A stretch of DNA of 64,000 nt, from positions 1,348,792 through 1,412,791 of the forward strand of contig CBDBQH010000003.1 in NCBI GenBank assembly GCA_965208975.1, given 5' to 3'. Position numbers and translations under genes: made by a program. Each line of letters starts with the position of its first letter. The stretch's first letter is position 1. The notes under the pieces were generated by a model that did not search any database, was not told the DNA's origin, and saw only the letters and a program-made list of their open reading frames with translations. Below, one piece after another: positions 24,560-45,603 of this stretch. This stretch comes from Candidatus Poriferihabitaceae bacterium. GTDB lineage: Bacteria; Pseudomonadota; Gammaproteobacteria; Arenicellales; Poriferihabitantaceae.

Positions 24560-24580
24560 TGCTACCCGCGTGTTGCAGTA

Positions 24581-25018
24581 TCATAGGGTTCGGGTTGACC
24601 CAGGCTTCCCAAGGAAAGCCTGGAGACGTTCGGTAGTTATCGCTATATCTCGCAATTCACATTCCCATACTGTAATCACTTCCCAACCATTTTCTTCCAA
24701 CAATGCAATATTGTGTGTATCACGAGCTTGATTTTGCTTCAGTTTGGTCAGCCAATAATCTCGATTGGTAGCAGGAATTCGAACCCGTTCACAGTCGGTA
24801 TGGTAGTGCCAGAAACAGCCGTTTACAAAAACGACTTTGTGACGTGATGGGAATACCAGATCAGGTTTGCCGGGTAGGTCGGTTCGATGCAAGCGATAGC
24901 GATAACCGAGACCATGCAACAGGCATCTTACCCGCATCTCCGGCTTCATACCCTTTGATTTGACCCGCCCCATTATGCGGCTACGGACCTGAGGCGATAC
25001 ATTATCAGCCATAACCAT
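24581..25018 (-). CDS. vsr: very short patch repair endonuclease
   Basis: 145 aa. MKPEMRVRCLLHGLGYRYRLH, LPGKPDLVFPSRHKVVFVNGCFWH. Lies 21 nt upstream of dcm on the same strand. Confidence 0.92.
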   Translation of the reverse strand: MVMADNVSPQVRSRIMGRVKSKGMKPEMRVRCLLHGLGYRYRLHRTDLPGKPDLVFPSRHKVVFVNGCFWHYHTDCERVRIPATNRDYWLTKLKQNQARDTHNIALLEENGWEVITVWECELRDIAITTERLQAFLGKPGSTRTL

Positions 25019-25240
25019 ACTTAACTACTCTTTTCAAACTCTACTGGCGACAACATTCCATTGACCTATGCCGCTTTGCCGGATTATAGAACACTCCGAT
25101 ATCGTTGAAAATGTCTGTCCGGCATTCCTGCAAATGCGGGAATCCAGACCCATGGCAGTATCAAATCTTCGCTTCAATCGGCGCCGCTATTTGGTTACGA
25201 TCACGGTTTTGGATTGATTCTCTATTGAGGGGTGGGTTTA

Positions 25241-26855: not shown

Positions 26856-27413
26856 GTGGATACTGTCAACTTCGTTCACATGATTGACGGCACCGCCGAA
26901 GAGTATGCTTTTCTTGTCAACCACGAGAAAGAACACGCAAAAACGCTGCCCGACCGATTGATGACGGCGTTGGCTGATCTCGAACACTCCTTTTCCGGCT
27001 ATCAAGTGAGCAGGCTGGAACACTCATTGCAATCCGCCACCCGGGCTCTTGACGCCGGAGAGTCCGAGCAAATGGTGGTGGCTGCCCTGCTGCACGACAT
27101 TGGCGACAACCTCGCGCCCTGCTCCCACAGCGAAATGGCGGCCTCGATACTGCGCCCTTATGTTTCGGAGAGAATCTACTGGATTGTCAAACATCATGGC
27201 CTGTTCCAGACCTGGTACTACGCCCATCATTTCGGCAAGGATCGTAATGTCAGGGAGCGCTTTCGCGAGCATGAATGGTATCAGGACTGTATTGATTTTT
27301 GTGAGAACTACGACCAGAACTGTTTCGACCCGGATTTCAAGTCAAAACCCCTGGAATTTTTCCGACCCATGGTGGAACGGGTATTCGCGGAACCGATGGC
27401 TCATTTTGTCTGA
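26856..27413 (+). CDS. HD-domain protein (possibly MIOX/PhnZ-like HD superfamily)
   Basis: 185 aa. HSLQSATRA...AALLHDIGD HD motif plus a second His cluster IVKHHGLFQ. Function not inferable. Confidence 0.7.
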   Translation: MDTVNFVHMIDGTAEEYAFLVNHEKEHAKTLPDRLMTALADLEHSFSGYQVSRLEHSLQSATRALDAGESEQMVVAALLHDIGDNLAPCSHSEMAASILRPYVSERIYWIVKHHGLFQTWYYAHHFGKDRNVRERFREHEWYQDCIDFCENYDQNCFDPDFKSKPLEFFRPMVERVFAEPMAHFV

Positions 27414-27503
27414 AAAATGAGCCAACACAATATCTGGCTTCAGAACCCCGGATTCCCGGTTGACACCCGGATTCCCGGTTGTGATCCGGATATGCTTGAT
27501 TGT

Positions 27504-27534
27504 CCGGTTTCAGGCTGGAAACCGGCTTTTGTTG
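27504..27534 (+). terminator. rho-independent terminator downstream of the HD-domain gene
   Basis: Perfect 8-bp stem CCGGTTTC/GAAACCGG (27504-27511, 27518-27525), 6-nt loop, then CTTTTGTTG. Confidence 0.6.
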
Positions 27535-27990
27535 CGCCGCCGGTAAAAAACGGCTTCGTGTAATCGCCTGTGTCGCACTTTCAGGGGTTACCCTTGCCGT
27601 TTTTGGGTTGGGTCAATATCCGGCTTTCCAGCCTGCCACGCGCTGGACGCACTGGATGGGATTCCCGGCTATCGTCCTGATCGCGGTGTCCTGATCGCGG
27701 TTGCACAAACAGGCCGCACAGTCTGGCAGTCTTCACCTGTCGCCCCTGTGGCTATGGTTGACGGGTAAACGACGTTACCCGTTGGATTACCGGCCATGAC
27801 CTTCTCGCAAGGGTTTATCCGGTTGCGGTTCCCAGGGCGCGATATTGTTCGCTATCAATCGCGGCCACCGCGCTGGCTACCATCTGATAGCATTTTCGTT
27901 TGAGTTGGCGCCGTCTGGATCAAAAAATGCTATCGCTGTTTCTATTGACCAATCGTGACCCGCTCCGCCTTCAGGAAAACCCGCTATCGT

Positions 27991-28395
27991 TTATTCCTCT
28001 ATCAGGTGCCCGTATCTGTATTCTTCTTTATAAGCCTTGTCGCCTGGCTTTTTGGTTACCCAAATTCCGTTCCTCTTGCCGTCTACATACGGGCCTTCCG
28101 AAACCATGCGGCCAGCCAGGAATGTATCTACCCAATGCCCGTTTTTCTCGCCGTCTACAACCGGCCCTGTTCCAGTTCCGCCGTTTGGTAGGTCGATGGT
28201 CTGCCCCTGGGTCTCTTGCCAGGCTGTTTGTATCAAGGCTTCAATCATCCGTGACCGGGTGACCGGGTGCATCCACGCCAGTTCGTCCAGTTCGTCCCGT
28301 CTGGCCGGATGAAGTCGGATATTGACTTGTGCCCGTTTGTCCGCCGGGTCGGTTACCCGGTCAGACCAGCGCGCATAATGCTTGTGTTTGTTCAT
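27991..28395 (-). CDS. chimeric ribbon-helix-helix protein: RHH N-terminus (repeat-encoded) fused to a MORN-repeat-like C-terminus
   Basis: The N-terminal 68 aa are near-identical to the 40103-40450 product (KRAQVNIRLHPARRDELDELA...TRSRMIEALI, a beta-alpha-alpha RHH pattern). The C-terminal part, GEKNGHWVDTF...YVDGKRNGIWV, resembles MORN/YwqK-type repeats and begins where nucleotide homology ends (28191). Confidence 0.55.
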   Translation of the reverse strand: MNKHKHYARWSDRVTDPADKRAQVNIRLHPARRDELDELAWMHPVTRSRMIEALIQTAWQETQGQTIDLPNGGTGTGPVVDGEKNGHWVDTFLAGRMVSEGPYVDGKRNGIWVTKKPGDKAYKEEYRYGHLIEE

Positions 28396-28877
28396 CGGCT
28401 GATCCGGCTAATGTATAGCCAGTCCGAATTGTGGATTGTGTGAATCAATCCAGTGAAGTCATCAGCCAGCCGGTAGCCAAGCGGATAGCGGAGGTTGTGA
28501 CGGGTATATTAGGCAGTGGGAGCTTGCAGTTGTCGATGGTTGTGGTGCGTCATGGCAAACAACAACCGATGGTATTGGTCAGTACCGAGCGGATACGGGG
28601 TCGTTTGCAAGGGGAGCGATTGATTCAATCGTATATGGGTCGTTGGGCCTGTGAGGAAGGGTATCGGTTCAGCAAGCAGGGGTTTGGATTGGAGAAGGTT
28701 CAAGCCCGGAAACTGGCGACCTTGCAGAATCTGGTTGCACTGGCGACGTTAGCCTGGGGATTGCTGGCCTGTCACCAGAATCAGGGGCAGAAACTCATCT
28801 ACAAGGCGAAACGGCAAAAGAGTCACAAACCCCTGGTTTTCCCGTTCTACACGCTGTTATCGGGCTGGCAGGCGTTA
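28191..28877 (+). repeat. 687-bp direct repeat, copy A
   Basis: Colinear with 40246-40932 at a constant offset of 12055 nt. No indels detected from ORF and junction comparison. Scattered substitutions. Confidence 0.9.
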
Positions 28878-28991
28878 TTTGCGGATGCCAAAACCCTTTT
28901 TTATGACTGGTGGAGAAAACCCAAACGCCCCCCACCCAGACAGGCTGACCTGTTCATCAATAACGGGCGGCTTGCGCCCATCCTCTCATGA
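28431..28991 (+). mobile_element. IS4-family DDE transposase, C-terminal fragment (186 aa)
   Basis: Contains the Y-(2)-R-(3)-E-(6)-K signature (YMGRWACEEGYRFSK). Lacks the N-terminal catalytic D residues and DNA-binding region. GTG start. Confidence 0.65.
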
Positions 28992-29240
28992 AAAAATGGG
29001 GAGACCTTAGTTTATATGCTTGTTGCCCATATCTGATATAATCCGATAATTCAACCACTAACGTTTATGAGTAATAGTTTATGAGTGATAGAAAATCCAG
29101 CCCGGCGAAAAAAACTTCCAAACAATCAGAAAGTAGTGGTAAATTTCCTCGCTCCCAACCAACTAATCCAGCAGATAAGAGACATATAAACAAAACGACC
29201 GATACAATGAGGCCCCCACCGAAACCGAAAAGATAAATCC

Positions 29241-29780
29241 ATGTCCATGTCAAAAAGCCAATTTTCAGATTACTCTGACAGAATGTGGGAGTTACTCTTT
29301 TCAGTGCGTCGATCTTTTCATTACCATGAGCATCGGGAACGGTTTTTCACACTGCTGCATAACATGGTAAATTTAACCTGGATAATCTGTGGAACCCTTG
29401 CCGTGTGGAAATTGATGGAAAGTGACACACAGATATATTTAGTCGCTGTTCCAACTATTGCGTCTGTGATAGACATTATTATTGGTTTTGCTTCTAAAAT
29501 ATCTGTGCACAAGGTTCTGAAACAAAGATACCTGCAATTGGAAACGGAAATTGTCAGTGACCCGGACAATCAGAAATATGTGGATTTTCATCGTAAACGC
29601 AGAGTTATCGAATCGGATGAGCCACCTAAATTACATGCGTTGGATGTGCTTTGCCACAACGAAGTGGTCCGCGCTTCTTACCCCCCTGAGGATGCCAGGG
29701 AACATTTGGCAAAAGTTCCATGGTTGCCCCGATGCTCTGCTCAACTTTTGTCCTGGCCCAAGACAATGAGTTCAATATGA
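29241..29780 (+). CDS. 2-TM membrane protein with SLATT-like architecture
   Basis: 179 aa. Cytoplasmic helix (RRSFHYHEHRERFF), two adjacent TM helices (LTWIICGTLAVW, IYLVAVPTIASVIDIIIGF), then the helix SVHKVLKQRYLQLETEI. The layout resembles SLATT effectors. Family not verified. Confidence 0.5.
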   Translation: MSMSKSQFSDYSDRMWELLFSVRRSFHYHEHRERFFTLLHNMVNLTWIICGTLAVWKLMESDTQIYLVAVPTIASVIDIIIGFASKISVHKVLKQRYLQLETEIVSDPDNQKYVDFHRKRRVIESDEPPKLHALDVLCHNEVVRASYPPEDAREHLAKVPWLPRCSAQLLSWPKTMSSI

Positions 29781-29876
29781 GCGCTTTGGTAAAGGACAGG
29801 CGCTCCCGGCAATAAAGTCTCTCACTGATTCATCCGGCAACCTTGATGGACCTGCTGCATAAGTTCTCACAGAATT

Positions 29877-31727
29877 ATGGATCGAACCCGGAAATATCAT
29901 GAGAGGCTGATCGGATTGCTCAAAACCGATGTGCGCTTCATTGATGATGAAGGGGAGCTGGTCAAGGCGGCAGTGATTGACCGCGCCTGGAAAATGGACC
30001 ACGGCCTGATGAGACTGTTGCTTGGCGATGAAAGAATAAAGACACAGTTCTTTGATGAAATTGAAGGGCATTGGCTTTTCAATACGAACACATTCATTGA
30101 CTACCTCTCCGATAAAAACTTCCTGGCCAATTCATATACCCGATTCCGCAACCGGATTGGTTTGAACATTGACAATAAATTCCTGCGACAGCGGGGCGAA
30201 GTATCCCTGGTTTGGCCATACAAGGATTGCGTACTGGAAGGCGGACAGACCAAAGAGGAGGAAAAACGCAAGGAGATTTTCTTCAATGAAATTCTGGCAC
30301 AGGACGAGATCGACCGATTACTCGACCCGAAAGTAATCACCAACTGGAAACGCTATACGATTGACGGTGATCAGAAAGTTACCGGGATCAGGCGGGATGA
30401 TGCCGGCGTAATCCGGGAAAATCTGATTATCAAGGGCAACAACCTGCTGGCATTACATACACTGAAAAAACAGTTCCGGGGCAAGGTAAAGCTGATTTAT
30501 ATTGATCCTCCATTTAATACAGAACGAGACAGTTTTACCTATAATGACAGTTTTACACATTCAGCATGGCTAACTTTTATACGGAGCCGACTTCTGGTTG
30601 CTTATGATCTTTTAAGGGCCGATGGAAATATTTTTGTACATGTTGACAACAATGAATCTCATTACATGAAGATCGTGCTGGATGAAGTTTTTGGAAGGGA
30701 AAATTTTGTAAATGAAATTATTTGGCACAAAGGAAGAGAAGGGGGTAGTTCGAGGTCACACTCAAAGAGTTCAGCAATGCCAACTGAATATCAGAATATT
30801 TTCATTTTTGCGAAAAACAAGTCATCGAGATTTTGGAACCCACCACTAGGCCCATATAAAAAATCCACTATTGGCCGAATTGAGAAAGATTCAAAAGGCT
30901 GGTTTTATACGAGGGGTCGAATGGGTAGAACACCAGCCGAATGGGAATTGCAAGCAGGATCAGGATTGAAAACATACATTTCTGACAGAGTTGATCTTGA
31001 TAAAGACAGAGTCATAGAAACCCTGACTGCACCCAATGCAAAATATGTAGCCATAGGAGATGTTTGGGGAAGAGAATTAGTAAAAAATTCAAAGGAAGCA
31101 AACTACGACACATCTAAACCAGAAGGATTGCTGAAGATGATCATTGAGGCAGCATCTAATCCGGGTGATTTAGTACTTGATTTCTTTCTTGGGAGTGGGA
31201 CGACTATGGCAGTATGCTTAAAATTGGATAGGAGATGTATAGGTATAGAACAGTTAGAAGGAGGAATAAACGCACTGATTCCGAGACTAAAAAATGTCAT
31301 CGGAAAAAATCTACAACAGAAGGAAAGCTTCCTCGAAGAAATTGAATGCGACACTGGCGGCATCTCCAAATCCGTAAACTGGCAAGGCGGTGGCGATTTT
31401 ATCTACTGTAAGTTGATGCGATACAACGAAGTCTGGATGGATAAAATCCAGGCCGGACGGTCTTCCGAGGAACTTGTAAAACTCTGGAAAGACATTGCTG
31501 AAAACTCCTTCCTGAACTGGTATGTGAACCCTGAAATCCCGGCGGAGGCGCTGACTGATTTTATTGCCATCGGGAAAAAGGAAAACGGGCTGGAGAAGCA
31601 AAAAACATTATTAGCGGAACTGCTGAACAAAAATCAACTCTACGTCAATCTTTCGGAAATAGACGACCAGGATTTTGCCGTCAACGAGGAAGATAAAGCA
31701 TTGAACAGAAAATTCTATGGATACTAA
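29877..31727 (+). CDS. mod: type III restriction-modification methyltransferase (Mod)
   Basis: 616 aa. N-terminal block NSYTRFRNRIGL, motif IV IYIDPPFNT before motif I LVLDFFLGSGTT (beta-class order), and the flanking AWLTFIRSRL...DGNIFVHVD typical of Mod. Confidence 0.9.
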   Translation: MDRTRKYHERLIGLLKTDVRFIDDEGELVKAAVIDRAWKMDHGLMRLLLGDERIKTQFFDEIEGHWLFNTNTFIDYLSDKNFLANSYTRFRNRIGLNIDNKFLRQRGEVSLVWPYKDCVLEGGQTKEEEKRKEIFFNEILAQDEIDRLLDPKVITNWKRYTIDGDQKVTGIRRDDAGVIRENLIIKGNNLLALHTLKKQFRGKVKLIYIDPPFNTERDSFTYNDSFTHSAWLTFIRSRLLVAYDLLRADGNIFVHVDNNESHYMKIVLDEVFGRENFVNEIIWHKGREGGSSRSHSKSSAMPTEYQNIFIFAKNKSSRFWNPPLGPYKKSTIGRIEKDSKGWFYTRGRMGRTPAEWELQAGSGLKTYISDRVDLDKDRVIETLTAPNAKYVAIGDVWGRELVKNSKEANYDTSKPEGLLKMIIEAASNPGDLVLDFFLGSGTTMAVCLKLDRRCIGIEQLEGGINALIPRLKNVIGKNLQQKESFLEEIECDTGGISKSVNWQGGGDFIYCKLMRYNEVWMDKIQAGRSSEELVKLWKDIAENSFLNWYVNPEIPAEALTDFIAIGKKENGLEKQKTLLAELLNKNQLYVNLSEIDDQDFAVNEEDKALNRKFYGY

Positions 31728-31773
31728 ACCGCTAATGACACAGGAATATTCAGCGCATCATCAGGAGTAAATT

Positions 31774-32001
31774 ATGAGAACAGAAATACAAACTACCCAA
31801 GATATATGGCCCATGCTGACACCCGTTGTTTTCGTTCCCCATGCGGATAATGAATACCAACGGTTGGTGGCTGTACTGGATAATTTGATTGATGTGGTGG
31901 GCGAAGATGAAAGCCACCCCCTGGCCTCACTCATGGAGGTCATTGGCGTGTTGATAGAAAAATATGAGGATGACCACGTTCCTGAACTGACGGAGGCATA
32001 A
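31774..32001 (+). CDS. small protein resembling only the N-terminal (non-HTH) part of HigA-type antitoxins
   Basis: 75 aa. Strong SD AGGAG 7 nt upstream of the ATG. LTPVVFVPHADNEYQRLVAVLDNLIDVVGEDESHPLASLMEVIGVLIEKYE parallels the E. coli HigA N-terminal region. No room for an HTH before res. Confidence 0.5.
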   Translation: MRTEIQTTQDIWPMLTPVVFVPHADNEYQRLVAVLDNLIDVVGEDESHPLASLMEVIGVLIEKYEDDHVPELTEA

Positions 32002-32052
32002 CAATCAGAAGACGGGCTCATTGGGAAACCAATCATTTCACCGGGCGATAAG

Positions 32053-34623
32053 ATGGCTGACAAGTATTTGTATGAGATACTGGATTCCGTCTCCCAAATG
32101 GGATTGTTAAAGAAAGAAATCCCCCGTTATCTCACGGATAATCTGAACCCCGCCCTTCAACTGCGTCCCTATCAGGAAGAAGTATTCGCCCGTTTTTTCC
32201 ACTGTCTTGCCAATGATTTTCCCGGCAAGAATCAGCCGTTGCATTTTCTGTTCAACATGGCAACTGGCAGTGGCAAAACCCTGATCATGGCGGGGTTGAT
32301 TCTCTATCTGTACGGGAAAGGCTATCGAAACTTTCTGTTTTTTGTCAACGCCTCGAATATCATTGAAAAGACAAAGGATAACTTCCTCAATCCGCTCTCA
32401 TCCAAATATCTGTTCAACGAAAACATCCATTACGGTACAAAAAGAATTGAGATAGCTCCAGTCACCAATTTTGAAGGCGCCAACGAAAACGGCATCAACA
32501 TCTGTTTTACCACTATCCAAAAACTGCATTCCAGTCTGACTATTGATAAAGAAAACGCGTTGACCTTTGAGGATTTCAGTAGAGGAAAAACCGTCCTTCT
32601 CGCAGATGAAGCCCACCACATCAACGTAAACACGAGGGCCGGAAAGAAATTATTTGAGAGTTGGGAAAATACGGTAGAACGCATCTTTATTCAGCACAAA
32701 AATAATTTACTGCTGGAATTTACCGCCACCCTGGATTACACCGATACAAATCTTGTCGATAAATACCGTAACAAAGTGTTATACCGATATGACCTGCGAC
32801 AGTTCCGCAATGACGGCTATTCCAAAGACGTTTGCATTGTTCAGGCAGATTTTGAGGAGAAAGACCGGATCATACAGGCGCTTATCCTCAACCAGTACAA
32901 GCAGGAAGTTGCAGCGAAATACACTATCAATTGCAAGCCGGTCATCCTGTTCAAGGCACAAAGAACAATTGCCCAATCCAAAGAGAACAAAGCCAGATTC
33001 CATAAGATCATTGAGAATCTTTCAGGCGATGACATTGACCGGATTTGGGACCAGTCAAACCTGCCACTGGTAAAGAGTGCATTTACTTTCTTCAAAGAAA
33101 ATCATATCTCTGCCAATCAGCTGGCGAAAAGGCTTCGCAGAGAATTTGATGAGAGTCGTTGTATTTCCGTAAATGAAGAAAAAGAAAAAGAAAATCAACA
33201 GATATTACTCAATACTCTGGAAGAACGGGATAACCATATTCGAGCCATTTTTGCAGTACAGAAACTGAATGAGGGTTGGGATGTCCTGAACCTGTTCGAT
33301 ATTGTCCGTTGTTATACGAATCGGGATGCAAAGGCTGGGAAACCGGGAAAAACAACTATTGCCGAAGCGCAATTAATCGGACGCGGAGCGCGTTATTTCC
33401 CTTTTGTTACCAACGACAACCCCGACCGATACCGGCGGAAATTCGACCAGAATCTGACTTCTGAACTGCGTGTGCTGGAAGAGATGCACTACCACAGTAT
33501 AAATGATTCCCGCTATATCTCTGAGTTACGTACTGCGTTGATTCAGGAAGGTATGGTAGATGAACGAGAGGTGACCAAGCCGCTCACACTAAAGGATTCG
33601 TTCAAGGCCACAGAGTTTTACCGGCATGGATTGGTCTACCTGAACAGCCGGGTCAGAAACCGATATGAAAAGGTTTACTCATTTTCTGATATGGGCGTTT
33701 CGTTACAAAACTATCAATATACGCTTGCAACCGGCCGGGGAGCATCTCAGTCCATCCTCGATAACAACGACAGTGTCAGTCAGGTCAAAGAAGCAGGCTC
33801 ACAAGAAATCAAAGTAAGGGATATTCCTGTTCACATAGTCAGAAATGCCATTGCCCAAAATTCTTTCTTTTCTTTCAACTCCATTAAAAAATATTTTCCT
33901 CATATTGAATCGGTGCGCCAATTCATTGATTCGGATGACTATCTCGGGGGGTTGGCAATCACATTTCAGGGAAATTTCCCCAACCCGTTACCTAATAAGG
34001 TCCAACTGGATGCGGTAACGGGTCTGCTCGGGGAAATCGAATCTGAGATGCGTAGAAATGCTACGGAATACAGGGGAACAGAAACATTCAAGCCATACGG
34101 GGTTGGTTCTGTATTCACGGCTAAAACCCTCAAATTGATTGAAGGCAGTGAAAGGGCCAATGGTGACGATCCGTTTGTTTCCGACAGGGAATGGTATGTC
34201 TTCAGCGCAAACTACGGGACCGGAGAGGAAAAGGCTTTTGTCCGGATGCTTGACCGCCAGATGGGTACACTGAAAGAAAAATACGATGAAATTTACCTGG
34301 TCCGCAATGAAAGGCATTTCAAGATTTACAGTTTTGACGACGGACAGGCGTTTGAACCGGATTTTGTTCTTGCTCTACGGGAGAAAAATGGAAATATGCT
34401 TACCTACCAGATGTTTGTTGAGCCTAAAGGAAAACATCTAAAAGATCATGACAAGTGGAAAGAGGAGTTTCTGCAACAAATTACGGACAAATTCAAGGGA
34501 AAAACACTGGAATTCAAAACGAAAATCAAGACCCAAAAATACAGGCTGGTGGGGGTTCCGTTTTATAACAATGAAGATGAAAACAGATTTAAGGAAAGTT
34601 TGTATGAGGCGGTGGGAATGTAG
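32053..34623 (+). CDS. res: type III restriction enzyme Res subunit (SF2 helicase + PD-(D/E)XK nuclease)
   Basis: 856 aa. Motif I MATGSGKT, II LLADEAHH, III FTAT, VI QLIGRGAR. C-terminal nuclease FEPDFVL...FVEPKG. Confidence 0.9.
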   Translation: MADKYLYEILDSVSQMGLLKKEIPRYLTDNLNPALQLRPYQEEVFARFFHCLANDFPGKNQPLHFLFNMATGSGKTLIMAGLILYLYGKGYRNFLFFVNASNIIEKTKDNFLNPLSSKYLFNENIHYGTKRIEIAPVTNFEGANENGINICFTTIQKLHSSLTIDKENALTFEDFSRGKTVLLADEAHHINVNTRAGKKLFESWENTVERIFIQHKNNLLLEFTATLDYTDTNLVDKYRNKVLYRYDLRQFRNDGYSKDVCIVQADFEEKDRIIQALILNQYKQEVAAKYTINCKPVILFKAQRTIAQSKENKARFHKIIENLSGDDIDRIWDQSNLPLVKSAFTFFKENHISANQLAKRLRREFDESRCISVNEEKEKENQQILLNTLEERDNHIRAIFAVQKLNEGWDVLNLFDIVRCYTNRDAKAGKPGKTTIAEAQLIGRGARYFPFVTNDNPDRYRRKFDQNLTSELRVLEEMHYHSINDSRYISELRTALIQEGMVDEREVTKPLTLKDSFKATEFYRHGLVYLNSRVRNRYEKVYSFSDMGVSLQNYQYTLATGRGASQSILDNNDSVSQVKEAGSQEIKVRDIPVHIVRNAIAQNSFFSFNSIKKYFPHIESVRQFIDSDDYLGGLAITFQGNFPNPLPNKVQLDAVTGLLGEIESEMRRNATEYRGTETFKPYGVGSVFTAKTLKLIEGSERANGDDPFVSDREWYVFSANYGTGEEKAFVRMLDRQMGTLKEKYDEIYLVRNERHFKIYSFDDGQAFEPDFVLALREKNGNMLTYQMFVEPKGKHLKDHDKWKEEFLQQITDKFKGKTLEFKTKIKTQKYRLVGVPFYNNEDENRFKESLYEAVGM

Positions 34624-34812
34624 GGCTGTTGACTAATACTTTGGTTAATGAATCTGGTAAAAGCTTGTTGGGCAATGTGAAATGTTGATACCACCAAGGT
34701 TAAAAAGAGCGACAGGCCCACGATAGTATAGGACCATGCACCCCGATGGAGTATTATCAACAACTCACACTCAGTGCCTGAGTTTCATATGCACTGAACC
34801 CGAACACCTTCG

Positions 34813-34841
34813 TTGCATACATAGAGTACCACCCACATAAT
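34813..34841 (+). promoter_or_regulatory. candidate sigma70 promoter of the TIR-SLATT pair (TTGCAT-N17-CATAAT)
   Basis: TTGCAT 34813-34818, 17-nt spacer, CATAAT 34836-34841, about 43 nt upstream of ATG 34884, which has SD AAGGGGA. Confidence 0.45.
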
Positions 34842-34883
34842 ATTCGGGAATGTGAAAATTTCGTCCAAAATAAGGGGATATAA

Positions 34884-35312
34884 ATGAGTACAAGACAAAT
34901 CCACGTTTTTATTAGTCATTCATGGGCTTACTCAAATCATTATCAAACTCTAGCTGATTGGATTTTTAATCAAAAGTGGAGCGTGGAGCAGGCATCCCTG
35001 GATTTTCGAGATTATTCTGTTCCACAAAGTGACCCAGTCCATAATGCAAATAATGACACGCAATTAAGACAAGCGCTTTACAATCAAATATCACGAAGCC
35101 ACGTTATTGTCATCCCAACTGGAATGTATGCCTCTTACAGTAAGTGGATACAAAAAGAGATTGATGGAGCTAGCCATTATAGAAAGCCTGTATTGGCAGT
35201 TAACCCCTGGGGCGCTCAAAGAACTTCTTCATATGTTAAAGATGTAGCAGACAAAATCGTTGGCTGGAATGCCAAGACTGTTGTTGGCGGGATTTGGGAA
35301 TTGTACAAGTGA
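34884..35312 (+). CDS. TIR-like domain protein (DUF1863/ThsB-like)
   Basis: 142 aa. IHVFISHSW start strand, VIVIPTGMYASYSKWIQKEIDGA containing the S-x-W-x(3)-E glutamate context used by TIR NADases, KPVLAVNPWG. Confidence 0.8.
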   Translation: MSTRQIHVFISHSWAYSNHYQTLADWIFNQKWSVEQASLDFRDYSVPQSDPVHNANNDTQLRQALYNQISRSHVIVIPTGMYASYSKWIQKEIDGASHYRKPVLAVNPWGAQRTSSYVKDVADKIVGWNAKTVVGGIWELYK

Positions 35313-36196
35313 TGAACGAATTTAAAATAAAATCTAGTGAAATGCCTGGATTGTATCAGTCTGCTGACCGGGCATCTCTTGATGCTCAAAGTAGTTACTT
35401 TACGGGCTTGCGATGGTATCTCGTCTTGCTGATTTGTGCTGCTTTTATTTCGTATGCTCGGCCCAATGACCTTATAGGTGCACTACTATCAGCAAGTCTA
35501 TTTTTAATCACTCTTGGAATTCTTGTGTTTATTCGTGTCAAAAAGCCTGATGACATTTGGTATAACGGCAGAGCTGTTGCTGAGTCAGTTAAAACAAGGG
35601 CTTGGCGATGGATGATGAGAGCTGAGCCTTATGAAGACCACCAAAACATTGAAATAGTTTCTAAACAATTCATTAACGATCTAAAAGCAATACTTAGTCA
35701 AAATAAAAGCTTATCCCATTCTCTTCAATCAACGGATGCTGTGGATGATCCTATTTCCCAGCCGATGAAGGATATAAGGACACTTTCCGTGTCTGAGAGA
35801 TTAGGAATATATGTAGATCAAAGAATTCAGAATCAAGTCAATTGGTATTGGACTAAATCCGGCTTTAATAAGCGTCGAGCCCAGCAATGGTTTTGGGTGT
35901 CCGTATTTTTGCATGCGTCAGCAATAGCCATGTTGTTATATCGGATTAAAGATCCAACCTTCTCTCTTCCGGTAGAGGTGGTTGCTACCTCAGCAGGAGC
36001 GGTATTAACTTGGTTACAAGCCAAAAAGCATAACGAACTAAATTCCGCATACGCTCTTGCTGCACATGAAATTGTATTGATAAAGGGAGAGTCTGCTTCT
36101 GTTTGTCGTGAACAGCAGCTTTCGGAATATGTGGTAAATAGTGAGGCAGCTTTCTCACGAGAACATACTCAATGGGTTGCTCGAAAAGGAGACTAG
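35312..36196 (+). CDS. SLATT/DUF4231-type membrane protein with two tandem 2-TM modules
   Basis: ATG overlaps the TIR stop (TGATG). Module 1 has TMs WYLVLLICAAFISY and LLSASLFLITLGILVFI followed by WYNGRAVAESVKTRAWRWMMRAEPY. Module 2 has RIQNQVNWYWTKSGFNKRRAQQWFWVSVFLHASAIAMLLY plus a further TM, then ELNSAYALAAHEI. Confidence 0.75.
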   Translation: MNEFKIKSSEMPGLYQSADRASLDAQSSYFTGLRWYLVLLICAAFISYARPNDLIGALLSASLFLITLGILVFIRVKKPDDIWYNGRAVAESVKTRAWRWMMRAEPYEDHQNIEIVSKQFINDLKAILSQNKSLSHSLQSTDAVDDPISQPMKDIRTLSVSERLGIYVDQRIQNQVNWYWTKSGFNKRRAQQWFWVSVFLHASAIAMLLYRIKDPTFSLPVEVVATSAGAVLTWLQAKKHNELNSAYALAAHEIVLIKGESASVCREQQLSEYVVNSEAAFSREHTQWVARKGD

Positions 36197-36348
36197 TTGC
36201 TAACAAAGCACTGCTACCGGAAAAAATTTTCTACTACTCACTAAACGGGCGTCCAGAACCATCCGAACAAGGTTAGCCCCATTGTTTCCAAAATCTGATG
36301 TTTTTGTGTCATCCTGAAAGATGATGGTGCGCGCAGATGTACGGCGTT

Positions 36349-36378
36349 TTGTATTATTAGAAACTAGTGCTGTATGAT
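36349..36378 (+). promoter_or_regulatory. candidate sigma70 promoter of the OLD-type gene (TTGTAT-N18-TATGAT)
   Basis: TTGTAT 36349-36354, 18-nt spacer, TATGAT 36373-36378, 26 nt upstream of ATG 36405. Confidence 0.4.
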
Positions 36379-36404
36379 GCACGGTTTTGTATCGGTTGCA
36401 GAAT

Positions 36405-38377
36405 ATGAAATTAACACACGCTCGGGTCCAAAACTTCCGTTCTATTCTTGATACAGGGAAGTTTTCTATAAACGACCTTTGTTGCCTTGTTGGGAAAAAT
36501 GAGGCAGGTAAAACTGCAACACTCACTGCTGTACAGTCAATTCTTCCATACGGGGATCCACAAACGTATTTTGATGTAACGGAAGACTACCCCCGTCGTT
36601 TTGCTACACGCTACCACGAAAGGCATAAAAATTCTGAGGCTGTTGTGGTAGAGACATGGTGGCAGCTTTGTGATGAGGGGTATGAACGGCTTTGTGAAGA
36701 ATTTAGCGAGGACGCTGTAAGGTCTCGTGAATTTCGCATTTACAAAAAATATAACACCGAAAATACTATATGGGATTTTGATCTGGATGAAGCTGTTGTA
36801 GTAGCGAGTATTCTTAAAGCCCATAGGTTGAATGCTACTGAGCAAGCCAGTCTTTCAAAATGTTCGACTATTTTGCAAGTTTTGGAAAAAATTGAAACCC
36901 GTGAGGAACCAACTGAAAAATTGAGAGCGATTGCTAAACATTTCGAGAACTATCAAAGATCAATTCAGTATAAAGCAACCGAATTGGTTGGTGATCTGGT
37001 TCCGACCTTCTTTTATACGTCTCATTATGACCGAATGAGCGGTAAATTGTCGATACAGAAAATTGCAGACAGAAAATTGCAGAGGACAAAAAAAATGATA
37101 ATGTTGATCCAGAAGATGAAATATTCCTGGATTTTCTGCGTCTTGCCGGAACTTCGCTGGAGGAATTGAATGAGGTGTCACGGTTCGAAGAACTCAACGC
37201 CAAATGTGAAGCAGCCTCCGCGGATATCACGGATCAAATATTCAAATACTGGTCTCAAAATGACAATCTTGAGGTAGAAGTAAAGCTCAGCGAGGGGCGA
37301 CCGGGCGATCCAGCACCTTTTAATTCTGGCGCCGTGGCTCGAGCTCGAGTATATAATCGGCTGCACCGGGCGAGTGTTTCCTTTTCTGATCGCAGTGCAG
37401 GTTTTGTCTGGTTTTTCTCCTTTCTTGTCCAGTTTGCCATGATGAGGCGCAATACAAGCAATGTAATCATACTACTTGACGAGCCTGGCCTGACGCTACA
37501 CGGAAAGGCACAAGCTGACTTGCTTCGCTATATTGAAGCTGAGCTTCTGCCTGACCACCAGGTTGTTTACACAACCCATTCCCCATTCATGGTTCCGCCG
37601 CAGAGGTTAGCTGATTGTCGTGTAGTTGAAGACGTTGTCAAACGCGACGAGCGAGACCGTCCTGTATCTGAAGGAACCAAGATTACAGATGACGCGATGA
37701 GCACAGACAAGGACACATTGTTCCCGTTACAAGGTGCGCTTGGCTACTCCGTCACTCAATCACTTTTCGTCGGTAAGAACAGCCTCCTTGTTGAAGGCAC
37801 ATCCGACATCCTGTATTTGCAGGCGCTATCGAGTGAAATTGAAAAGCGCGGTGGGATGTCACTCGACCCGAAATGGACACTCTGCCCTGCCGGGGGCATA
37901 GACAACCTGAGGCCATTCGTTTCCTTGTTCGCTGGAAACCACCTCAACATCGCGGTTCTTTCGGATCAAGCACAAGGAGATAAAAGTAAGGTTGAACGGC
38001 TCAGGAGAAGCGAAATTCTTGCCGCTGAACGGTTCCATACGATCGCTGAATTGCTTGACGAAGATGAAGCAGATATTGAGGACTTGTTTGTATCTGAATT
38101 GTTCTGTCGGATCGTAAATGAAGCTTATGGGTTAGAAGGAAATCATGCAGTTACGCCAGAAAAATTGAACGAAGTCGCAAATACAGAAAGGCAGGTTAAA
38201 CGGGTGGAGGCTTATTTCAATCGTCTGCCAGAAGCCATTCCAACTTTCAGCCATTTTCGTCCAGCAGAGTGGCTCATTCACAATGGAGAGATTTTGTCTG
38301 AGAAATCGGATTCGGTAAAAGGCACGCTTGAAAGAGCAGAGAAAATTTTTAAGATTTACAACGAAATATTGATATAG
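36405..38377 (+). pseudogene. OLD-family-type ABC ATPase + TOPRIM nuclease gene, frameshifted by a 14-bp tandem duplication
   Basis: Walker A VGKNEAGKT (N-terminal ORF 36387/36405-37169). Walker B IILLDEPG, H-loop TTHSP and TOPRIM-like LLVEGTSDILYL (ORF 37166-38377). Deleting one 14-bp copy joins the two ORFs in frame, giving ...GKLSIQKIAEDKKNDNVDPEDEIFLDFLRLAGTSLEELNEVSRF... Confidence 0.8.
37055..37083 (+). repeat. 14-bp tandem duplication (cagaaaattgcaga x2; period-14 identity spans 29 nt)
   Basis: 37056-37069 equals 37070-37083. The preceding base also matches. Confidence 0.95.
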
Positions 38378-39329
38378 CTGTCCCACTATAATTACAAAGC
38401 CCACCCGCCCCCGGCCCCAGATGTTCCTCTTTGCGCTCTTCCGCTAACTGAACCTGTCTCCCCCGCTCTGCAAACCGCGCCCTGTCCTGTTGTGAGCGCT
38501 TGCCGTGACATTTCGGGCAACTCACGCCCGGCTGATAATACTCGCTGGCCTTGTCTTTCTCCGTAACCGGCATGCGGCAGCCGTGGCACTGGTCATAACG
38601 GCCCCGGTTCAAATCATGGTCAACCGTGACCCGTTCATCGAACACGAAACATTCGCCCCGCCATCGGGACTCCGATACCGGGACGGTTGCGAGATAATTC
38701 AGGATTCCGCCTTGCAGATGATATACGGATTCAAAGCCGTTCTGTTTCAGGAAGGCCGTGGCTTTTTCGCAACGGATGCCGCCGGTGCAATACATGGCGA
38801 TCTTTTTGTGTGTTTCCGGGTCCAGGTTTTCCAATGCGTATTGCGGAAATTCCCTGAAATTGGTGGTATGGGGATTGACCGCATTTTCAAAGCGCCCCAC
38901 CTCGATCTCGTATTCGTTGCGGGTATCGACCACAAGCGTTTCGGGGTCTTCCAGCAGCGCATTCCAGTCTTCGGGATCAATATAGGTCCCCGCCAGTACC
39001 TGCGGATCAATATCTTCGACCCCCATGGTGACGATTTCTTCTTTCAGCTTGACCCGGGTGCGTTTGAACGGCATCCGGTCGGTCCCGGACTGCTTGTATT
39101 CAATACCGGAAAAACCGGCTTGCCCCTCCAGCCACTTCAGAAATTGATCAATCGCTTGCCGCTCACCGGCGATCGTGCCATTGATCCCTTCTTTCGCAAG
39201 CAACAAGGTGCCGGTGAGCGACAAGCCGGATAATTGATCCAGCATCGGTTGTTGCAGGGAAACGTAATGGGCAAGCGGCGTGAATTTATAAAATGTGCAA
39301 ACCACCAGGTTGTTTGCAGGTTCTGTCAT
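38349..39329 (-). CDS. trhO: rhodanese-domain tRNA uridine(34) hydroxylase (UPF0176/YceA family)
   Basis: 326 aa. N-terminus VCTFYKF..., EGINGTIAG, rhodanese active-site loop CTGGIRCEK, C-terminal Cys cluster CHGC...CPKCHG. Confidence 0.85.
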   Translation of the reverse strand: MTEPANNLVVCTFYKFTPLAHYVSLQQPMLDQLSGLSLTGTLLLAKEGINGTIAGERQAIDQFLKWLEGQAGFSGIEYKQSGTDRMPFKRTRVKLKEEIVTMGVEDIDPQVLAGTYIDPEDWNALLEDPETLVVDTRNEYEIEVGRFENAVNPHTTNFREFPQYALENLDPETHKKIAMYCTGGIRCEKATAFLKQNGFESVYHLQGGILNYLATVPVSESRWRGECFVFDERVTVDHDLNRGRYDQCHGCRMPVTEKDKASEYYQPGVSCPKCHGKRSQQDRARFAERGRQVQLAEERKEEHLGPGAGGLCNYSGTAISIFRCKS

Positions 39330-39413
39330 GGCATCTGTTCAGGATGGGCCGGGGCGCCCTTTGGGCAACAGGAGCAACCGGGGGAATACAGCCCGTATAA
39401 TCGATCTGTAGAA

Positions 39414-39647
39414 TCAGGAGTCCATGATCTCATCCGCTAACCTGTTCAGATCTTCCCAATCGTCTTCTTCATCAAGCCAGACCACAGCCTGACATACGAT
39501 CACCGACTGACCATCAAAGGTCATGGCTGGAGAGCCGTACAGTTGATAGCCCATTTCCAGCGCTTCGCTGACCCGACGGCAAAAGGAGACATCATCCGGG
39601 CCGGTCAGCAATCGGTAGGGTAGTTTGTTTTCAGATAGATTGGACAT
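39414..39647 (-). CDS. DUF1737-like small protein
   Basis: 77 aa. YRLLTGPDDVSFCRRVSEALEMGYQLYGSP matches the DUF1737 pattern as I recall it. Confidence 0.6.
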   Translation of the reverse strand: MSNLSENKLPYRLLTGPDDVSFCRRVSEALEMGYQLYGSPAMTFDGQSVIVCQAVVWLDEEDDWEDLNRLADEIMDS

Positions 39648-39726
39648 GACATAAAACCTTTTTGTAATTATCAGTTACTATACCCCAAATCCCGGTTCCG
39701 TTTCTACGCTCACCCGTCCACACCCG

Positions 39727-40017
39727 ATGACTCCCCGCATAAAGGTCTCCACCGATCAAAAAGGTAGCTGGAGTGTGTCGAAACGACTACTGCCATACCT
39801 GTGGAAGCATCGCGCGCGGGTCGGGGCGGCGCTGTTGTTTCTGGCGCTGGCTCGCATGGCTAATGTGACGGTGCCGGTGACGTTGAAATGGATCGTCGAC
39901 GACCTGGACATGGAGGCGCTGGTTGCTGTGCCCGTCGGGTTACTCGTGGCTTATGGCTTGCTGCGATTCAGTACCATCGCGTTCAATGAAATTCGCAATG
40001 TGATTTTTTCCCGCACC
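39727..40017 (+). pseudogene. 5' fragment (~97 codons) of an ABCB/Atm1-type ABC transporter permease-ATPase gene
   Basis: RLLPYLWKHRARVGAALLFLALARMANVTVPVTLKWIVDDL...YGLLRFSTIAFNEIRNVIFSR is a typical first-TM region. The reading frame then runs into unrelated sequence, and no TMD or NBD follows anywhere downstream. Confidence 0.6.
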
Positions 40018-40102
40018 GGAATTCAGATAGCCGTTCTTTATAAAACCTCTATCGCGGATTTGGGGGGCCACTTGTCATTTCCGGCTACTCCGTCCAGTTC
40101 GT

Positions 40103-40450
40103 TTAATCCTCTGGTGACCGCCGGACAATCAACCCGTCCCGCCCCATTTCTGCCCGTAACTGTTCCAGGCTCTTACCTTTCCCGGTCGCTGGTCGATTGC
40201 TGGCCGGGGTCGATTGATCAACCTCGCCGCGCTCAATGGTGGCCGGGTCGATGGTCTGCCCCTGGGTCTCTTGCCAGGCTGTTTGTATCAAGGCTTCAAT
40301 CATCCGTGATCGGGTGACCTGGTGCATCCGCGCCAGGTCGTCCAGTTCGTCCCATCTGGCCGGATGAAGTCGGATATTGACTTGTGCCCGTTTGTCCGCC
40401 GGGTCGGTTACCCGGTCAGACCAGCGCGCATAATGCTTGTGTTTGTTCAT
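40103..40450 (-). CDS. ribbon-helix-helix protein (115 aa)
   Basis: Paralogue of the 27991-28395 N-terminus with a different C-terminal tail. Confidence 0.6.
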   Translation of the reverse strand: MNKHKHYARWSDRVTDPADKRAQVNIRLHPARWDELDDLARMHQVTRSRMIEALIQTAWQETQGQTIDPATIERGEVDQSTPASNRPATGKGKSLEQLRAEMGRDGLIVRRSPED

Positions 40451-40932
40451 CGGCTGATCCGGCTAATGTATAGCCAGTCCGAATTGTGGATCGTGTGAAT
40501 CAATCCAGTGAAGTCATCAGCCAGCCGGTAGCCAAGCGGATAGCGGAGGTTGTGACGGGTATATTAGGCAGTGGGAGCTTGCAGTTGTCGATGGTTGTGG
40601 TGCGTCATGGCAAACAACAACCGATGGTACTGGTCAGTACCGAGCGGATACGGGGTCGTTTGCAAGGGGAGCGTCTGATTCAATCGTATATGGGTCGTTG
40701 GGCTTGTGAGGAAGGGTATCGGTTCAGCAAGCAGGGGTTTGGATTGGAGAAGGTTCAAGCCCGGAAACTGACGACCTTGCAGAATCTGGTTGCACTGGCG
40801 ACGTTAGCCTGGGGATTGCTGGCCTGTCACCAGAATCAGGGGCAGAAACTCATCTACAAGGCGAAACGGCAAAAGAGTCACAAACCCCTGGTTTTCCCGT
40901 TCTATACGCTGTTATCGGATTGGCAGGCGTTA
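40246..40932 (+). repeat. 687-bp direct repeat, copy B
   Basis: See copy A. Boundaries located by base-by-base comparison at both junctions. Confidence 0.9.
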
Positions 40933-40950
40933 AAAGCGCTTTCAGGATGA
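40486..40950 (+). mobile_element. IS4-family DDE transposase, C-terminal fragment (154 aa, further truncated)
   Basis: Near-identical to 28431-28877. Diverges after ...TLLSDWQAL and stops. Confidence 0.65.
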
Positions 40951-41126
40951 ACCCACCTCTTCACGGATAACAGCGCTGTTTCGATCAAAAAATGCCGCAA
41001 GGTTGTATCCGACAACATCCCGCATGAAATCATAGGTCGATATCAACGGATTATTTGCTCCGATTCGCAGTTCATATCACCCCCGTCAATCCGTTTATAG
41101 AAATCGTCTCAGTATTCATCACAGTA

Positions 41127-42143
41127 TCATCGCCCCGATTTTCCAGAACCCATCCCAGCCCGTCGCTGGTTAATCCGGCGGGTCGCTTCCTCAGTACCAT
41201 CGTGCAGGGTATCGAGCCATTTGTCCCAGGGCATGAACGGGGTTCCGTAGTTGCATTCGAAGTATCGGTGATGGAGCTGATGGAACAGGTTGGCGACCCC
41301 GAGCGTGGATTTGCCCTTGATGACAATGGATTCGTAACCGACATGCCCGGTATAAGCCGACAGCGCGGTCAGATAGATATGGAAGAACATGTGGATCGGG
41401 TGGGAGGGAATGACCAGATGAATCAGCACGGTACTGAAATAAAACAGATGCTCAAGCGGGTGCATCGCTAACCCGGACCATGGCCCGATCGTGACGTTTT
41501 TGTGATGCAGGGCATGGGCAATCCGGTAGAGCGGTGGCCAGTGAATCAGCCGATGGATGAAGTAGAAGTGCATTGACGCCCATGCGGTCAATATCAGGAA
41601 CAGGCCAACAAACCAGTAAGGATTATCCGACCAGGTATTCCATAGAATGAGCTGATTGGCATACGCCCACATCAGCAATACCTGAAATCCTGTCCAGACC
41701 GTAACACCACTGGCGCAGGTCCAGAAGATATTGTCCCAAACCTGGTTGTTGAACAGGAATGTCCGGTTGTTTCGGGCTAATTCCCGATGCTCGTATCGTT
41801 GCACCTTGCCCTGGCATTTCCAGGTATGGAAATAAAGATGCAGGCCGCCCGCCGCCACCACGGAGAGACCGATATTGATCGCCCAAACCTGAAATATCCA
41901 GTCTGGCGAGAAGGTCTTCCAGTCCTCGATTCCCGGAGAGAGGTAAAACCACGTCACAATCCCCAGCAAGACAAAAATCATCATCTGGGATAATACAAAC
42001 CCCCTGCCCAGAATAAACTTCAATGCCTTGACGGGTTGCGGCGGCCATACGAAAATCGGCGGCATCACCAAAGGCAACTGCGGATGCCAGTTCCATGGCC
42101 CTCTTGTACGGTGGCTGGATTTCAGGGAAGCGGGGTCAGCCAT
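41127..42143 (-). CDS. fatty acid hydroxylase/sterol desaturase superfamily membrane protein
   Basis: 338 aa, hydrophobic, with three His boxes (HRLIH, HALHH, HQLHH). Starts 15 nt after the clpX stop. Confidence 0.75.
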   Translation of the reverse strand: MADPASLKSSHRTRGPWNWHPQLPLVMPPIFVWPPQPVKALKFILGRGFVLSQMMIFVLLGIVTWFYLSPGIEDWKTFSPDWIFQVWAINIGLSVVAAGGLHLYFHTWKCQGKVQRYEHRELARNNRTFLFNNQVWDNIFWTCASGVTVWTGFQVLLMWAYANQLILWNTWSDNPYWFVGLFLILTAWASMHFYFIHRLIHWPPLYRIAHALHHKNVTIGPWSGLAMHPLEHLFYFSTVLIHLVIPSHPIHMFFHIYLTALSAYTGHVGYESIVIKGKSTLGVANLFHQLHHRYFECNYGTPFMPWDKWLDTLHDGTEEATRRINQRRAGMGSGKSGR

Positions 42144-45430: not shown

Positions 45431-45515
<85 letters not shown>

Positions 45516-45603
45516 TTATTCACGCCAGTTTCTTATTTCACGCCAATTTGTCGCGAACTCAACTCTTGCGATAACCCGAACCCAAGCGAACCAGTGTAGA
45601 AAA

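Follow-up and report, generated by a model that had tools for sequence, protein, structure and literature searches.

Islands that lie between directly repeated IS copies can be lost or amplified in a RecA-dependent manner, as happens at IS-flanked chromosomal loci and with IS26-type translocatable units. Horizontally acquired genes and defence systems also collect in integrase-free hot spots that have core genes as conserved flanks (Oliveira et al. 2017, PMC5635113), some of them described as 'core defense hotspots' (Johnson et al. 2023, PMC10250203). The locus analysed here, in a 64,000-nucleotide window (the whole stretch of DNA under analysis, to which unprefixed positions refer) from a genome that is probably that of a sponge symbiont, has traits of both. 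As in the IS-bounded islands, direct repeats of several hundred base pairs with IS sequence bracket an accessory block that recombination would delete or amplify; unlike in those islands, the IS pieces are dead and joined to a partial host gene, and the transposase has no possible role. As in the core-gene hot spots, content of 93 bp to 17 kb, rich in restriction and defence genes, lies between core flanks (here clpX-FAH and HD, FAH being a fatty-acid hydroxylase gene), there is no sign of a single mobilising element, and homologous recombination appears to account for the turnover. The locus departs from those hot spots in that the recombination substrate is apparently an internal relic repeat, composed of a ribbon-helix-helix (RHH)-like gene start and a dead IS, and not the core flanks, and in that the incoming block looks as if copied from a different hot spot, namely the trhO locus, in this genome or a sibling one. 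The most likely reading is that ordinary homologous recombination left the repeats as scars, and that they are not a new mobile element.

The features of the region are as follows, where C1, C2 and C3 are the three contigs of the genome and IS positions are counted on the 1426-bp full element:

26856-27413, plus strand: HD-domain gene, left core flank (Pfam HD; orthologues of 81-92% amino acid identity in 7/7 genus relatives)
27465-27990: module of ~0.5 kb, apparently non-coding, found repeatedly 3' of RHH-cassette cargo genes (no Rfam match)
27991-28190, minus strand: MORN-like repeat gene, 3' part, in-frame fusion with RHH codons 1-68
28191-28877: repeat copy A, with RHH-like codons 1-68 (28191-28395, minus strand), an upstream stub (28396-28420) and a dead IS piece (28421-28877)
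28421-29010, plus strand: dead IS4-like piece in copy A, in which IS 177-292 is joined to 942-1426 (by BLAST against its own genome)
29011-38399, plus strand: low-GC (0.40-0.45) defence stack (composition, Pfam, PADLOC)
29877-31727, plus strand: type III mod
32053-34623, plus strand: type III res
34884-35312, plus strand: ThsB-like TIR gene
35294-36196, plus strand: SLATT gene
36387-38377, plus strand: OLD-type ATPase/TOPRIM gene, in two parts owing to a 14-bp tandem duplication
38400-40034: second copy of the native trhO-DUF1737-ABC locus, with the N-terminal 103 codons of ABC
40077-40475, minus strand: complete RHH-like gene of copy B with short flanks (CDS 40103-40450, 115 aa)
40246-40932: repeat copy B, with an IS piece (40476-40932) ending 133 bp before the IS terminus
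40948-41064, minus strand: putative restriction-endonuclease gene relic of 39 codons, adjoining copy B
41127-42143, minus strand: FAH gene, right core flank (Pfam FA_hydroxylase; 86-92% orthologues beside clpX in all genus relatives)

Both repeats lie inside the 13.7 kb between the HD and FAH genes, an interval that is variable among genus relatives. In six of the seven relatives the corresponding gap measures 93 bp (G004), 0.7, 1.8, 5.1, 14.6 and 17.4 kb, and in the seventh the two genes are unlinked. G004 represents the empty state, with its HD gene adjoining the FAH gene; at the same site G005 has Mrr and a restriction-modification system, and G006 a large helicase/methylase island. With the same two core genes, a variable and defence-rich content and an empty state, the interval is, on genome comparison, a core-gene-flanked defence hot spot.

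The initial annotation had described two colinear 687-bp direct repeats in this region and had proposed an exact alignment as a check. The alignment bears the description out: offset by 12055, 28191-28877 and 40246-40932 form an ungapped alignment in which 14 of 687 bp differ (98.0% identity), and beyond either end the identity between the copies drops to chance level, the flanking letters being tggta versus ggccg on the left and ttt versus aaa on the right, as reported. The three longest mismatch-free stretches measure 137, 137 and 133 bp. The repeat is a composite, in which the 5' end of a small RHH-like gene, a member of a dispersed family, makes up positions 1-230 and a dead IS piece positions 231-687. 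The substitutions had been thought to cluster in the RHH part, which is not so by density (5 in 230 bp versus 9 in 457 bp in the IS part), although four of the 14 are indeed packed into 28 bp (28255-28282). What had been taken for a 35-bp divergent intergenic region is actually the fusion joint between the RHH-upstream stub and the IS. This joint is the same in both copies (28418-28420 and 40473-40475), and they also have an internal IS deletion in common; because the gene/IS joint is shared, both copies can be traced to one already-degraded ancestor, as the initial annotation had argued in preferring duplication of a degraded element over two insertions. The inner side of each copy is intact, and the outer side of each is cut by an illegitimate junction.

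Both IS pieces lack the 5' 176 bp of a 1426-bp IS4-like element and start at IS position 177; the N-terminal truncation noted earlier is thus real, but an in-frame internal deletion of ~650 bp has to be added to it. In copy A, homology to other IS copies continues for 133 bp outside the repeat and stops at 29010, the true IS terminus, where the right inverted repeat is intact (28991-29010). The piece in copy B stops at IS position 1293 and has no right inverted repeat. The left inverted repeat is absent from both copies, and the DDE transposase core is deleted. The same in-frame deletion is found in a complete 762-bp MITE-like derivative with both ends (C1:198290-199051), and the window copies resemble such MITE-like deletion derivatives of IS4-like elements; unlike the complete derivative, they are further truncated and, since the left inverted repeat is missing, not mobilisable in trans. 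A search for the intact IS elsewhere in the genome, also proposed earlier, recovered at least five near-full copies, four of 1425-1427 bp and one of 1384 bp. Full copies carry the inverted repeats CTAAAGTCTCCCCATTTTTT and CTAGGGTCTCCCCATTTTTT, and flanking duplications of 8-10 bp (target duplication ~9 bp) are present at C3:1728061, C3:1320867, C1:503113 and C1:585820. The transposase scores 21.4 against Pfam DDE_Tnp_1 (cut-off 23), and its best NCBIfam matches, IS4 (49 bits, cut-off 250) and IS701, all lie far under threshold.

Cargo flanked by direct repeats with transposase-derived sequence, in a genome where at least five near-full copies with target duplications attest an active IS family, might be read as an element that actively moves, be it a composite transposon with an IS copy at each end or a site-specific island between att repeats. 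We consider this very improbable and rejected both forms. A functional IS or composite transposon is contradicted by the missing left inverted repeats, the missing right one in copy B, the loss of the DDE core and the lack of a target duplication. For a site-specific island, the repeat ends are illegitimate joints and not att-like cores, no integrase or recombinase domain was found in the 17 larger ORFs scanned in the hot spot (27991-40950), and the closest tRNAs lie 4 kb off (45431-45679). We also considered as a recombination motif the 9-mer GTCGATGGT, which occurs both at the RHH/MORN joint and at the IS internal-deletion joint, and dismissed it as coincidence, because its 8-mer core GTCGATGG ranks only ~9,300th of 65,018 8-mers.

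The RHH gene had been described as truncated in each copy. This holds for copy A, which retains codons 1-68, but the gene of copy B is complete at 115 codons, extending 143 bp beyond the repeat (40103-40245), with family homology continuing to 40077 (169 bp). It has a 90% match to C3:1198763-1199142 that crosses the repeat boundary, and full-length orthologues of 72-85% occur in genus relatives and ENA contigs. Ribbon-helix-helix (Arc/CopG/MetJ) proteins have an N-terminal beta-strand followed by two helices and are obligate dimers. The RHH-like protein had no match in Pfam, NCBIfam or PADLOC; one orthologue gave a weak Arc-like PHROG match (E = 8e-4), and an AF2 monomer model (11 sequences) reached a pLDDT of 51, a weak test given that the fold is an obligate dimer. 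On these results the RHH assignment is plausible but tentative.

The sequences outside the repeats are distinct on the two sides. Left of copy A, the junction with the MORN-like gene lies in a 10-bp microhomology, GGTCGATGGT, and the MORN-like part has paralogues by tblastn and blastn at C3:474542-474739 and 817748-817855. The ~0.5-kb module next to it has 87-96% matches at C3:1196836-1197261, 1200636-1200844 and 1227457-1227658. The usual layout of the RHH family is RHH, then cargo, then this module (for example, C3:1196836-1199142), and the RHH of copy A fits it. Right of copy B, the restriction relic corresponds, at 85% amino acid identity, to residues 163-201 of a 212-aa ORF that lies next to a DNA methylase in the G005 version of this hot spot, and by this homology it is a remnant of an older island. 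The final 6 codons of the FAH gene derive from inserted DNA, and homology with G004 stops near 41150.

These flanks also bear on the chance that the 12-kb block was misjoined during assembly, with the 687-bp repeat or the 99.2% identical trhO copy described below as the site, so as to combine copies from different strains or loci. The genome is probably metagenome-assembled, with an Arenicellales MAG as its closest relative; it is in three contigs, the C1/C3 break falling in a long tandem repeat; and near-identical repeats are classic misjoin sites. We nonetheless think an artefact improbable, as the repeats are short and both lie in one 2.1-Mb contig, the copies differ at 14 positions and have distinct and specific flanks, the outer flanks match the core genes of the hot spot, and the relic is homologous to the G005 island at the same site. 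Contig C2 (4.4 kb), considered as an alternative haplotype or excised form, proved to have no relation to the region.

The contents of the intervening segment had been correctly listed as a defence island, trhO, a DUF1737 gene and an ABC fragment. The defence stack also includes a gene for a 179-aa TM protein, and no structured RNA was found in the region (no Rfam match at E <= 0.1). To the earlier description can be added that the trhO-DUF1737-ABC' block is a secondary copy, 99.2% identical to the native locus at C3:1204037-1205674, where ABC is full length (594 aa); in the window trhO has lost its stop codon and gained a 16-aa foreign tail. G004 retains 155 bp of this res 5' end as a relic (88% identity), ~1.2 kb from the 3' end of trhO, and in the native trhO locus of this genome an RHH 3' fragment lies left of trhO. 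Judged from these relics, the adjacency of island and trhO is ancestral at the native trhO locus.

The anatomy, the junctions, the hot spot and the duplication are established by these comparisons. The direction and mechanism of the event behind this arrangement we infer as follows, giving the account a probability of about 0.5. The repeats would be non-autonomous scars in an integrase-free hot spot, left when a 12,055-bp circle entered a resident relic by one crossover. An ancestral joint would have welded an RHH-like upstream stub to a dead MITE-like derivative of the 1426-bp IS4-like element. The hot spot would at first have held a doubly truncated relic, consisting of the MORN fusion, the 687 bp and the restriction-gene relic. 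A circle of 12,055 bp would then have formed, with the RHH-like gene in full, the dead IS as far as its right end, the low-GC stack of defence genes and a trhO-DUF1737-ABC' segment copied from a native-type trhO locus. It would have entered the relic by a single RecA-type crossover near repeat positions 92-109, in the manner of a Campbell-type integration, in which the homology is directly duplicated and each copy is a chimera of resident and incoming sequence with one resident and one incoming flank. One such crossover would therefore yield two chimeric direct repeats with inner sides intact and outer sides truncated, matching what is observed. Unlike in known Campbell cases, the event here is read from sequence polarity only, and the circle is hypothetical, with no recognisable replicon or origin.

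The differences between the copies point the same way. The derived base lies in copy A at repeat positions 65, 75, 85 and 92 and in copy B at 109, 247, 429, 430, 459, 526, 674 and 675, so that 12 of the 14 polarised differences fit one breakpoint between positions 92 and 109, the exceptions being 385 and 660; outgroup polarisation is ambiguous at 4 of the 14 sites. A single-breakpoint permutation test, chosen after seeing the data, gave p = 0.046 for all 14 sites and p = 0.013 for the 10 unambiguous ones. Divergence between the copies in the IS part (9/457 bp, 2.0%) exceeds that between the trhO block and its native copy (0.8%), which fits an older resident copy. An origin in place or in one step, with no resident relic and with the differences arising later, predicts neither of these patterns. 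It could have taken the form of a local duplication with two outer truncations, or of insertion by two illegitimate joints of a linear piece, originating in a concatemer or circle, of ~1.06 units with 687-bp terminal redundancy. The layout of RHH copy A also speaks against it: because that layout is the usual one of the family, as at C3:1196836-1199142, the copy appears to be a resident and not a random insertion end. On the other side, the common joint and deletion fit such an origin equally well, illegitimate joints do occur at both outer ends, it takes about as many events or fewer, and the relic-only state was not found in any genome or metagenome contig searched. We regard it as possible but the less likely course.

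Likewise, no genome or metagenome contig searched had the donor arrangement (RHH, dead IS, island, trhO), and the 31-mer of the RHH/IS junction had no match in JGI metagenome contigs. Identical Res, ThsB or DUF1737 proteins are not on record in other assemblies. Res relatives in GTDB species genomes (56-77% amino acid identity) come mostly from unrelated phyla, including Desulfobacterales, Poribacteria and Caldilineaceae; because synteny there is limited to mod-res, none of them identifies a donor. The 13.7-kb region had no megablast match in PLSDB or INPHARED, and an origin from a plasmid or phage was therefore rejected.

RecA-dependent excision or amplification, which the initial annotation foresaw for the intervening 11,368 bp, is mechanistically plausible. 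The reverse crossover would remove 12,055 bp as a non-replicating circle, and unequal sister-chromosome exchange would amplify the unit. Since the trhO-DUF1737-ABC' block is a redundant copy, loss of the 12-kb unit should not harm the cell. For annotation, the chimeric ORFs at the repeat and trhO junctions call for caution: the 134-aa RHH-MORN, 326-aa trhO and 196-aa 'ABC' ORFs and two 'transposase' ORFs are recombination artefacts and not genuine genes.

The feature is of an ordinary kind, and its interest is local and moderate. It offers a well-resolved case of a defence island placed, and possibly lost, in a core-gene hot spot without an integrase or active transposon, where dispersed dead repeats and homologous recombination would suffice for placement. 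More speculatively, and in our view doubtfully, the RHH-like start and dead IS may serve as a portable homology patch by which a defence island and host genes hop, integrase-free, from the trhO locus to the FAH-HD site, a circle forming and then inserting, RecA-dependently, where a relic of that patch already lies. Were this true and general, the repeats that former occupants leave behind as relics would determine in advance where and how new defence islands land in symbionts without dedicated island recombinases.

The two direct repeats that bracket the defence island align without gaps at a constant offset of 12055, the relation claimed in the initial annotation and upheld by both a repeat search and base-by-base comparison. 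The copies differ at 14 of 687 positions (98.0% identity), and beyond both repeat ends their identity is at chance level. The longest mismatch-free blocks between them measure 137, 137 and 133 bp; perfect blocks of 133-137 bp are of ample length for RecA-type recombination. The proposed clustering of mismatches in the RHH-like part fails by density (5 in 230 bp versus 9 in 457 bp of the IS part), but four do fall within 28 bp.

Features of the repeat region (window positions)
28191-28877: copy A of the repeat
29011-38399: defence-gene stack of low GC (0.40-0.45), with type III mod and res, a ThsB-like TIR gene coupled to a double-SLATT gene, and an OLD-type ATPase/TOPRIM gene broken by a 14-bp tandem duplication
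38400-40034: trhO, DUF1737 and ABC copies, 99.2% identical to C3:1204037-1205674
40246-40932: copy B of the repeat
40948-41064, minus strand: 39-codon relic, right neighbour of copy B

BLAST against the window's own genome, where the window occupies C3:1348792-1412791, resolved the repeat into a composite of two sources. Positions 1-230 hold the first 68 codons of the small RHH-like gene and ~25 bp upstream, on the minus strand; family copies lie at C3:1198763-1199142, C3:1201676-1201865, C3:1212938-1213045, C3:731829-731939 and C1:376-542 of the same genome. Among the sequences searched, homologues are restricted to this genus (at least G004 and G006) and four ENA contigs. That the small gene encodes an RHH protein is plausible but unproven, because the family has no match in Pfam, NCBIfam or PADLOC, one orthologue gives a weak PHROG 'Arc-like repressor' match, and the AlphaFold2 model is poor (pLDDT 51). 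The genes share a recurring layout (window 27465-28420; C3:1196836-1199142; C3:1200636-1201865): the RHH-like gene is followed by a variable cargo gene (RTX-like 383-aa protein, 181-aa lipoprotein or MORN-like protein), and this by a conserved module of ~0.5 kb that is apparently non-coding. Within the family, homology has a common start at window 40077, 26 bp past the RHH stop, and an 8-kb periodic repeat in an ENA contig (L030) holds an RHH orthologue and a large RTX protein. The layout looks like a cassette family shuffled by recombination.

Positions 231-687 derive from a 1426-bp IS that has inverted repeats of ~20 bp and target duplications of ~9 bp and encodes a 421-aa transposase of only distant likeness to IS4/IS701. 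A search for the intact element found at least five near-full copies elsewhere in the genome (four of 1425-1427 bp, one of 1384 bp). The window pieces lack the left inverted repeat, since they start at IS position 177, and have also lost IS positions ~293-941 in frame, a deletion shared with a complete MITE-like derivative of 762 bp at C1:198290-199051. Given these two losses, the 186-aa and 154-aa 'transposase' ORFs are dead remnants. An active transposon or att-type island, which we rate as having practically no chance, is ruled out on anatomy. At C1:503080-503113 a second IS right end lies directly left of a full copy (…AAAAAATGGGGAGACCCCAG…), a sign that members of this IS family have inserted in nested or tandem fashion. 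The final 6 kb of C1 are identical to C3:1759-7758 and sit in a long array of ~4.8-kb tandem repeats; C1 and C3 probably belong to a single chromosome that was split at a giant repetitive gene. Contig C2 shows no relation to the region.

In both copies the RHH upstream stub is joined to IS position 177 in the same way (28418-28420 and 40473-40475), and both therefore go back to a single, already degraded ancestor, as first suggested. To the right of copy A, the match to other IS copies goes on in perfect register for another 133 bp and reaches the right inverted repeat at 29010, and the low-GC island begins directly after it. On its left, the sequence switches at 28190/28191, within a 10-bp microhomology (GGTCGATGGT) found in both gene families, into the 3' part of a MORN-like repeat gene, yielding an in-frame 134-aa chimera. 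Copy B continues leftward into a complete 115-codon RHH-like gene, colinear with paralogues and orthologues to 40077, and its IS part stops at 40932; the adjoining relic shares 85% identity with residues 163-201 of a 212-aa ORF in G005, which adjoins a DNA methylase at the corresponding chromosomal site. As read from these junctions, both copies are intact on the side that faces the island and truncated by an illegitimate joint on the side that faces away. The motif GTCGATGGT is common to two deletion joints, with no notable over-representation.

The block at 38400-40034 matches the native trhO-DUF1737-ABC locus, whose ABC gene has its full length of 594 aa. In the window, trhO has lost its stop codon and gained a 16-aa foreign tail, and ABC ends after codon 103. 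An RHH 3' fragment (C3:1201676-1201865) lies left of trhO at the native locus. The adjacency of island and trhO is not accidental: the orthologous native locus in G004 keeps a 155-bp relic of the res 5' end (L073 9970-10124; 88% identical to window 32022-32176), ~1.2 kb from the trhO 3' end and in the same relative orientation as in the window. The interval from a VirB11-like gene to trhO is variable (4.3 kb in G004 versus 7.9 kb in the window's genome). Taken as circular, the 12,055-bp unit has the order RHH gene, dead IS, island, trhO, DUF1737, ABC', which gives it the look of a single uninterrupted piece from a native-type trhO locus, closed where ABC codon 103 meets the RHH 3' flank (40034-40077).

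The region has no plasmid or phage matches and no Rfam matches, the island proteins have no identical sequence in other assemblies, and the RHH-IS junction is absent from JGI metagenomes. Relatives of Res (56-77% amino acid identity) come mostly from unrelated phyla, with synteny limited to mod-res. Within the stack, a perfect 14-bp tandem duplication at 37056-37083 (CAGAAAATTGCAGA, twice) divides the OLD-type gene into ORFs 36387-37169 and 37166-38377. The dcm-vsr pair at 23376-25117 is a 98.7% duplicate of C3:804405-806146 (1742 bp), a further recent segmental duplication of a methylase/repair module.

Both repeats lie in a variable gap of 13.7 kb (~27445-41149). The block tig-clpP-clpX-FA hydroxylase is present in all seven same-genus genomes, with the HD gene across the site in six, and comparison with these relatives revealed an empty site.

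Gap between FA hydroxylase and HD genes in same-genus relatives
G004: 93 bp, empty site
G003: 0.7 kb
G007: 1.8 kb, Na/Pi cotransporter
G001: 5.1 kb
G005: 14.6 kb, Mrr, R-M pair, duplicated hydroxylase 3' end
G006: 17.4 kb, large helicase/methylase island
G002: genes not adjacent, rearranged

No ORF scanned at the hot spot has a recombinase domain, and in this the site matches the integrase-free hot spots of Oliveira et al. 2017 (PMC5635113) and the 'core defense hotspots' of Johnson et al. 2023 (PMC10250203). Homology to the empty-site relative ends near 41150, and the hydroxylase gene closes with six extra codons (SGKSGR) from inserted DNA (41127-41149). In G005, two directly repeated ~78-bp copies of the hydroxylase 3' end (L018 3903-3981 and 7532-7609) enclose a 3.5-kb Mrr and R-M insert with no visible integrase at this hot spot.

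We put at about 85% the probability that these are dead composite repeats of common descent, in an integrase-free hot spot, flanking a transplanted block; the initial observation holds, and its interpretation is borne out in part and sharpened. With paralogues and other IS copies as outgroups, the derived base lies in copy A at repeat positions 65, 75, 85 and 92 and in copy B at 109, 247, 429, 430, 459, 526, 674 and 675, with exceptions at 385 and 660 (single-breakpoint permutation test, p = 0.046 for all sites and 0.013 for the 10 unambiguous sites). Two parental copies are suggested: a more diverged one, preserved in A's left and B's right portions and bearing both outer truncated joints, and a near-ancestral one, preserved in B's left and A's right portions and bearing both intact inner continuations. 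A resident relic, truncated on both sides, would have occupied the hot spot, and a circle bearing an intact copy would have entered it by a single crossover. We give this Campbell-type insertion an even chance; it also fits the greater divergence of the IS part (2.0%) than of the trhO block (0.8%). An origin by duplication in place, or by insertion of a linear piece with terminal redundancy, would leave the mismatches to later divergence and seems rather doubtful, and an assembly chimera as the source of the paired copies is highly improbable.

The repeat pair is an example of an already known kind of feature, accessory DNA flanked by repeats within a core-gene defence hot spot, and not of a new mechanism. 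Recombination between the repeats would delete 12,055 bp and leave one hybrid repeat, taking the whole defence stack with the redundant trhO and DUF1737 copies and visibly nothing unique and essential, and unequal sister exchange would amplify the same unit.
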